Assembly: GCF_988242995.1 (NCBI RefSeq)
Contig: NZ_OZ547043.1
Direction: 5' to 3' (one strand)
DNA: 64,000 bases
Each line of letters starts with the position of its first letter. The first letter of the stretch is position 1. The notes under the pieces are model-generated. The model searched no databases, was not told the origin of the DNA, and worked only from the letters and a program-made list of their open reading frames with translations. Positions 49,296-50,350 of the stretch are shown piece after piece. The position numbers were made by a program, and so were the translations under genes.

Positions 49296-49327
49296 TTGAT
49301 GATGTGACCCTATTCTCTTCAGGTATG

Positions 49328-49335
49328 CTACCGCC
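49328..49335 (-). promoter_or_regulatory. ops element (GGCGGTAG) in the kps region 3 leader, the RfaH recruitment site
   Basis: Plus-strand CTACCGCC at 49328-49335 is GGCGGTAG on the coding strand, 33 nt upstream of the kpsM start. Confidence 0.7.
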
Positions 49336-50350
49336 CCTGGCTTAACAGCTACCAATACACTGGAGGTAATACTTGTTTGTAACTGGATAAAATTTACTCA
49401 GACGGTTTGACCTTTTTAATAGCCGCAAACAATTTCAGCAGAAATTATTTCCGCAGGGATAAATAGATCTATTTCCGTCTCGTTTCTTCTAATCCATTCT
49501 TCAGGCATGAATGTATTCGGTCTTCTGGTAATTTCAGAAAACTGGCCGTTTTAGAATGTAGAGTTAATTTCCCAGGAAATTATTTTTTGTTATTACTGTT
49601 AACTACTTGATTATAATACCCCCATGTATTTTATGCGTAACAATACCTGCAATCTGTTTCAAACCAGAACGCACGCGATTGATCACCAATAAATTGTTCA
49701 CTGAGAAACTATTTCCCTATTTAAAATTCACTCGTGTACTTCTTATTTATATCTACAGCCCCCTCTTTACAGCCATATTTGTGATTTATATCACATTTAA
49801 ATGGTGTTATTTAAGCCGCATCAATAATCCCGAAGGTAATTATTTTCGTCGATTAAAATATACATCTTGATTATTTTGTGTATTTATTTTAACCAGTATT
49901 ACAACCAACACCATCCCTCAGTAGATATACCTGAGCAGACATTTCTTAAAATCGACGAATAGTTTCACTGGAAATTATTATGCTTATTTGAAATTCCCTT
50001 TCTGATTATCTCCAGGAATTTTACTAATTTCCAAGCTACACAAAATACAGATAACACAAGAATTATCCTATATGTTTTGGCCTATCAATTGTTACTCAAT
50101 GATTTATTGCAACTATTAATAATCATAATGTGTCAAAACACTTAAGCAACTTTACAGTCTGAGAAAGGTGTCGATTAACGAAGGCTACATGGTGAAAAAC
50201 AGGTTCCTTCAGTGTTACCGAATATTCCGTGGTGGTCTGGAGGGAGATAATTCTTGCTACATCGAAAGTCAGCCCGGTGAGCGGGTTTGACAGTTCCGCA
50301 CTCACCATTGGACTAAGGGTTATCAGGTGGGGTTAAGGAAATGGCAATAC

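Follow-up and report, generated by a model that had tools for sequence, protein, structure and literature searches.

The kpsM–yghD spacer of a rare Escherichia coli group 2 capsule cluster as the probable RfaH-dependent control region of region 3

In extraintestinal Escherichia coli, group 2 capsules count among the major virulence factors. The 64,000 nt of DNA analysed here (the window) contain an E. coli group 2 (kps) capsule cluster flanked by pheV and yghD, and between kpsM and yghD lies a spacer of 1055 bp with 35.9% G+C (49296–50350). Does this DNA control the capsule genes, or does it simply fill the place where the cluster meets the core genome? A first-pass annotation, made from the letters alone, had read it as about 1 kb of AT-rich non-coding leader with an ops core close to kpsM, supporting RfaH-dependent antitermination from region 3 into region 2. 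Our analysis gives us high confidence that this DNA serves as the control region of region 3, consisting of the promoter PR3, a long 5′-UTR and the ops element, and that it would work by RfaH-mediated read-through. As such it is an already known, textbook feature that has been characterised experimentally, and it involves no new mechanism. The details in which this allele differs from others are described below.

The capsule locus and its promoter region

The gene layout is that of a group 2 cluster, with regions 1 and 3 around a variable region 2 of low G+C content, arranged as two convergent transcription units, at the chromosomal position between pheV and yghD (Table 1). This assignment was based on ORFs, annotation, Pfam matches for KpsM and KpsT, and the G+C content of region 2; the values were 29% for region 2, 34% for the UTR, 45% for kpsM and 54% for yghD. 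The kpsM gene, which encodes an ABC-2 permease and opens region 3, starts with an ATG at 49295–49293 of the minus strand (A at 49295), and E. coli 042 is co-linear with the window here. Region 2 (41673–47765, minus strand) is rare, being present in 13 of 5426 complete E. coli genomes, and is nearly identical to that of E. coli 042. By Pfam, its products are a cytidylyltransferase-like protein, a 1112-aa protein without a Pfam match, and a protein with WcbI and hexapeptide acetyltransferase-like matches. The genome paper of E. coli 042, which has the same rare type of region 2, noted a conserved ops 28 bp 5′ of kpsM and yghD as the neighbour (PMC2808357).

Table 1. Features of the capsule locus and of the kpsM–yghD spacer (window coordinates)
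Feature	Position	Strand	Remarks
pheV (tRNA-Phe)	6647–6722
kpsFEDUCS (region 1)	33.6–41.6 kb	+
Three region 2 genes and kpsMT	41.7–49.3 kb	−
kpsM	48519–49295	−	ORF; Pfam ABC2_membrane 3.3e-15; E. coli 042 RefSeq CDS with same coordinates
Spacer between ops and kpsM ATG, 28 nt	49296–49323	−	No good Shine-Dalgarno sequence
Predicted 5′-UTR of the kpsMT–region 2 operon, 741 nt	49296–50036	−	Arithmetic from published distance (PMC8960920)
12-nt ops GGCGGTAGCATA	49335–49324	−	Ends 28 nt before kpsM ATG; core, 49335–49328
JUMPStart, 39 nt	49324–49362	−	Rfam RF01707, 53.6 bits, model positions 1–38 of 38
Motif copy AATAATTTCTGCTGAAATTG	49430–49449	−
Invariant 30-nt mid-UTR block GAAGACCGAATACATTCATGCCTGAAGAAT	49496–49525	−	Nine alleles; window-row positions 836–865
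Motif copy AATAATTTCCTGGGAAATTA	49565–49584	−	Where long-UTR alleles hold the extra 117 nt
Weaker motif copies	49704–49716, 49825–49844, 50012–50035	−
Projected downstream H-NS footprint (+141 to +219)	49818–49896	−	Coordinates from PMC8960920, start at 50036
Motif copy AATAATTTCCAGTGAAACTA	49960–49979	−
PR3 core promoter block	50037–50100	−	Nearly invariant in nine alleles; unbroken run at window-row positions 283–325
Candidate −10, TATTTT	50047–50042	−	Correctly placed for start at 50036
Better −10 hexamer, GATAAT	50067–50062	−	15 nt further upstream than TATTTT
TTGATA	50088–50083	−	15 nt ahead of GATAAT
Projected upstream H-NS/SlyA footprint (−135 to −21)	50057–50171	−	Coordinates from PMC8960920, start at 50036
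195-bp segment before yghD stop	50156–50350		47.7% G+C; kps-linked, single copy, not in K-12
yghD (gspM)	50351–50887	−	Pfam T2SSM 4.6e-46; annotation

Of 5426 complete E. coli genomes, 1591 carry the whole spacer, which in each of them separates kpsM from yghD and has 81–98% identity; to other group 2 strains, a K5 strain among them, it is 95–98% identical. Comparison of the alleles revealed no conserved ORF in 49296–50350, so the description of the interval as about 1 kb of AT-rich non-coding DNA holds. A review that cites Stevens 1997 and Xue 2009 (PMC8960920) places the start site of PR3, which has a −10 but no −35 sequence, 741 bp upstream of kpsM, and the ops 28 bp upstream of the gene. 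It also describes H-NS footprints at −135 to −21 and +141 to +219 with overlap by SlyA, a tuning by the long UTR of how much transcription arrives at kpsM, and a requirement of RfaH for read-through into region 2 (PMC8960920).

In the window, the distance between ops and kpsM (28 nt) equals the published one, and alignment of 49296–50036 with the K5 strain gave a net length difference of zero. Projection of the distance published for K5 would put the start site at about 50036. Therefore only about 741 of the 1055 bp would be leader, while 50037–50350 would be promoter and upstream DNA; the "long leader" of the first-pass annotation is thus retained as a 5′-UTR of about 741 nt and, by the published distance, given up for the remainder. 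On this published start site, the ops, which stands 28 nt ahead of the first gene in a co-oriented run of five, would lie downstream of the promoter, within the transcribed leader. The stretch 50100–50010 is almost invariant in nine aligned alleles, two of which are only 81–88% identical overall. It holds two −10 hexamers, and which of them serves PR3 we can only infer from the sequence, TATTTT being poorer than GATAAT.

Two further parts of the spacer were followed across genomes. The 195-bp segment next to yghD is present in 1545 genomes, at one place in each and solely in kps carriers, and is swapped for other sequence in strain E69. The mid-UTR block GAAGACCGAATACATTCATGCCTGAAGAAT is unchanged despite up to 19% divergence around it. 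When 100,044 species representatives were scanned for a 24-mer from this block, a single E. coli genome was hit, which precluded a comparison across species.

The JUMPStart/ops element and RfaH

The ops core GGCGGTAG is on the minus strand, that is, the coding (non-template) strand of kpsM, and is separated from the ATG by 32 nt (49296–49327), so its last G is at −33, in agreement with the 33 nt given by the first-pass annotation. A search for the full JUMPStart consensus around 49300–49400, which that annotation had proposed, was positive: the 39-nt element matches RF01707 over the full length of the model with a score of 53.6 (gathering score, 35; E=1.9e-9 for the whole window), and it is the sole match of this grade in the 64 kb. 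With the JUMPStart that follows galF in an O-antigen cluster it shares 95% identity.

Ops bases 3–8, which make the RfaH contacts in the non-template strand (PMC5995543), are intact in the window (CGGTAG). Bases 1–9 and T11 agree with the consensus GGCGGTAGCGTG. At position 10, the window and E69 have A and the remaining seven aligned alleles have G; at position 12, every one of the nine aligned kps alleles departs from the consensus by having A. T11 is therefore followed by A, whereas validated E. coli RfaH targets have TG at positions 11–12 (PMC5995543). In an ops reporter study, all single substitutions tested except G2C cut the RfaH effect; G12C abolished the U11 pause, yet recruitment persisted in vitro (PMC5995543). 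Given that A10 and A12 depart from the consensus and that substitutions lowered the effect in that study, the ops of the window may be a weaker RfaH loader than the consensus sites. The kps ops nevertheless recruits RfaH in strain CFT073 (PMC9765446), and, with bases 3–8 and T11 intact, the element in the window has the sequence needed for RfaH loading. GGCGGTAGCATA is a minority ops allele, and the exact 80-nt haplotype adjoining kpsM is shared by 46 of about 1590 genomes, among them LF82 and NRG857c.

The published work on other K types provides a model into which these elements fit. In those types the σ70 promoter PR3 fires some 741 nt ahead of kpsM, a point that would correspond to about 50036 on the minus strand of the window, and H-NS and SlyA bind the AT-rich promoter and UTR, which gives temperature control. 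In the window strain, the 39-nt JUMPStart with its ops would load RfaH likewise. Bound RfaH keeps NusG out, withstands Rho and the pausing stimulated by H-NS–StpA, and remains on RNA polymerase; RfaH is also known for ribosome recruitment, with which the weak Shine-Dalgarno sequence of kpsM is in keeping (best anti-SD duplex −3.7 kcal/mol, ending about 11 nt before the ATG; −9.5 for yghD and −7.9 for kpsF). With RfaH loaded at the ops and probably aiding ribosome recruitment to kpsM, transcription would thus run on through kpsMT into the AT-rich region 2 (47765–41673). What the sequence itself contributes is the elements, their positions and their conservation.

Several observations on the window are in line with this model. 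The DNA downstream of the ops is very rich in AT (region 2, 29% G+C) and of the kind covered by H-NS filaments. A scan of kpsMT and region 2 for intrinsic terminators gave no more matches than shuffled sequences, which is consistent with factor-dependent polarity. The proposed antitermination from region 3 into region 2 matches the published group 2 model for other K types. ChIP in CFT073 shows RfaH from the kps ops onwards into the downstream DNA, and RNA polymerase occupancy 5.4 kb downstream in the ΔrfaH mutant is 0.1–0.34 of that in the wild type, an effect that depends on H-NS–StpA filaments (PMC9765446). A transposon screen found that an rfaH mutant and insertions in the spacer upstream of kpsM lead to loss of the K1 capsule (PMC5654933). 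The check with an rfaH mutant that the first-pass annotation proposed has thus been made in other K types, and dependence of the distal kps genes on RfaH has been shown for K5, K1 and CFT073 (PMC8960920, PMC5654933, PMC9765446).

Other explanations of the spacer deserve consideration. The core GGCGGTAG could be a chance 8-mer and the AT-rich kilobase inert junction DNA where kps meets the core genome. Taken alone, the core is indeed near chance: the window holds three copies where 1.2 are expected, at least three occurred in 11 of 100 shuffles, and the other two, at 1788–1795 and 40861–40868 (both minus strand, the latter antisense within kpsS), lack a JUMPStart context and are consistent with chance. 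The copy before kpsM, however, is part of a full-length JUMPStart match, and its ops stands 28 nt before kpsM in 9 of 9 aligned alleles; moreover, alleles that are otherwise 81–88% identical hardly vary in the promoter core and the JUMPStart. This conservation pattern, together with the rfaH and ops experiments published for other K types (PMC8960920, PMC9765446, PMC5654933), in effect refutes chance and inert DNA as an explanation, to which we attach next to no probability.

Conservation might also reflect a hidden gene for a small protein or an sRNA, since a 61-aa ORF with an ATG start (50308–50123, minus strand) is retained in seven of the nine aligned alleles and there is an 87-aa ORF with a TTG start on the plus strand. 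The former has a frameshift in Esc23 and gives way to other sequence in E69, and among 5.8 billion proteins it matches E. coli itself only. Of the plus-strand ORF, several alleles have a truncated form or none, and JUMPStart alone among Rfam families reaches threshold. A hidden gene is therefore extremely improbable, and the 61-aa ORF, the largest on the sense strand and just downstream of yghD, is probably not a gene. Somewhat less remote, but still very unlikely, is that the JUMPStart acts mainly at the RNA level, as a leader hairpin or a target of the sRNA RyhB controlling kpsM translation, rather than as a DNA signal for RfaH loading. The Rfam model does include a 5-bp hairpin just 5′ of the ops, and RyhB is reported to raise expression of a kpsM 5′-UTR–GFP fusion, with pairing predicted over the ops region (PMC11988350). 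On the other hand, the proximal 170 nt around the JUMPStart are no more stable than shuffled sequence (fold z=+1.27), and such mechanisms are compatible with RfaH loading, to which they would at most add a layer. A control region with RfaH-dependent read-through thus remains the reading that we favour.

A repeated UTR motif, two UTR lengths and a mosaic flank

A directional, partly palindromic motif, AATAATTTC-N4-GAAAT, recurs on the transcribed strand of the kpsM UTR at a spacing of about 130 nt. Its half-sites are conserved and its centre is variable, both between copies and between strains. The pattern ATTTCNNNNGAAAT, which was picked after inspection of the data, occurs with at most one mismatch three times in the spacer versus 0.12 times in region-specific shuffles (none of 2000 reached three), and one further copy is present in the remaining 63 kb. 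Tandem Repeats Finder detected no array in the spacer, and the intervals of about 130 nt between motif copies had no likeness beyond the motif itself (pairwise alignment, z<2.5 after removal of the first 28 nt); therefore, there is no evident tandem duplication in the UTR. An Rfam match to CRISPR-DR63 (29.6 bits, threshold 37) was discarded as a sub-threshold hit to the palindromic motif, as was a sub-threshold match to ssnA (17.3 bits). A literature search with the motif sequence returned nothing relevant and no known binding protein.

An extra block of 117 nt is inserted at about 49585, between two motif copies, in 413 complete E. coli genomes, which make up about a quarter of the UTR-bearing genomes and include LF82. 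Among the aligned alleles it is carried by FEX669, Esc23 and E69 and is missing from the window, K5 and 042. The UTR therefore exists in forms of 741 nt and about 858 nt, the window having the short one. It is conceivable, though we rate it as unlikely, that the motif forms an array of sites for a regulator, or a set of RNA hairpins, which sets how much PR3 transcription reaches the ops. If so, recombination between motif copies would generate the two lengths of UTR.

The spacer also bears on how the cluster ends. The first-pass annotation had found no copy of the pheV 3′ end in the interval, and our wider search agrees: no exact match of at least 12 nt to any part of pheV was found elsewhere in the window, nor any other match to its last 25 nt or its last 18 nt with up to three mismatches each. 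Homology to K-12 stops at the CCA of pheV (6722) and restarts at 50352, at the yghD stop, and the 149-bp pheV–yghD spacer of K-12 has no counterpart in the window. The segment absent from K-12 starts directly after the pheV CCA, with a tyrosine recombinase gene first. An Rfam match to the IS102 RNA family (74.6 bits, 19023–19259) lies inside the pheV island. The interval 49296–50350 moves together with kps as a conserved flank that reaches the yghD stop; it is not an att end, and an integrase-made island end is therefore not expected there. Consequently, the earlier statement that the right boundary lacks an att repeat is correct as to the absence, but the interval is not the place where such a boundary would be sought.

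Between 46432 and 49307 the window and E. coli 042 have no differences. The first is at 49308, between the kpsM ATG and the ops; 14 differences follow past 49307 in the next 650 bp, and divergence of about 3.4% continues through gsp (2–3.4% across the spacer and the gsp operon). This end of identity at 49307 points to a recombination junction at the start of kpsM, adjoining the JUMPStart. For the T2SS-beta (gsp) operon (50351–64000), the highest identity among the 5426 complete E. coli genomes is 97.5%, whereas the left flank (1–8300) matches the top-ranked genomes at 100%. The window is a mosaic, with an unsampled allele as its right flank.

Significance and comparison with known systems

It is through this control element that the capsule export genes are linked to the genes for serotype-specific synthesis. 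As judged by its sequence, the rare 042-type capsule cluster has retained the standard control region of RfaH-dependent type, which makes its expression probable. Those who work on capsule regulation may find use in the allele details, namely the ops with A10 and A12, the short and long forms of the UTR, the motif repeated within it and the recombination junction where kpsM begins.

Three known systems can be compared with the window. Genomic islands at tRNA genes have the tRNA 3′ end as a direct repeat at their boundaries. The window resembles them in that its K-12-absent segment starts after the pheV CCA with a tyrosine recombinase gene, and differs from them in that the pheV 3′ end is repeated neither on the yghD side nor elsewhere. 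JUMPStart/ops elements (RF01707) also precede the rfa (waa), O-antigen (rfb), hly and tra operons. These are like the window in the 39 nt with an identical 8-nt core on the non-template strand, and in the placing of the element in the (here predicted) leader of an operon that is long, AT-rich and horizontally acquired. In contrast to them, the window has TA rather than TG at ops positions 11–12 (PMC5995543), and its element would be about 700 nt from the promoter, whereas theirs are close to it.

The nearest counterpart is the PR3–UTR–ops region of the K5 and K1 group 2 clusters, which has the same locus, orientation, neighbours (kpsM and yghD) and 28-nt ops distance as the window. From these the window departs in three respects: ops position 10 is A instead of G, the 80 nt beside kpsM belong to the haplotype of 46 of about 1590 genomes, and the control region would drive the three-gene region 2, a rare type that 13 of 5426 genomes possess.
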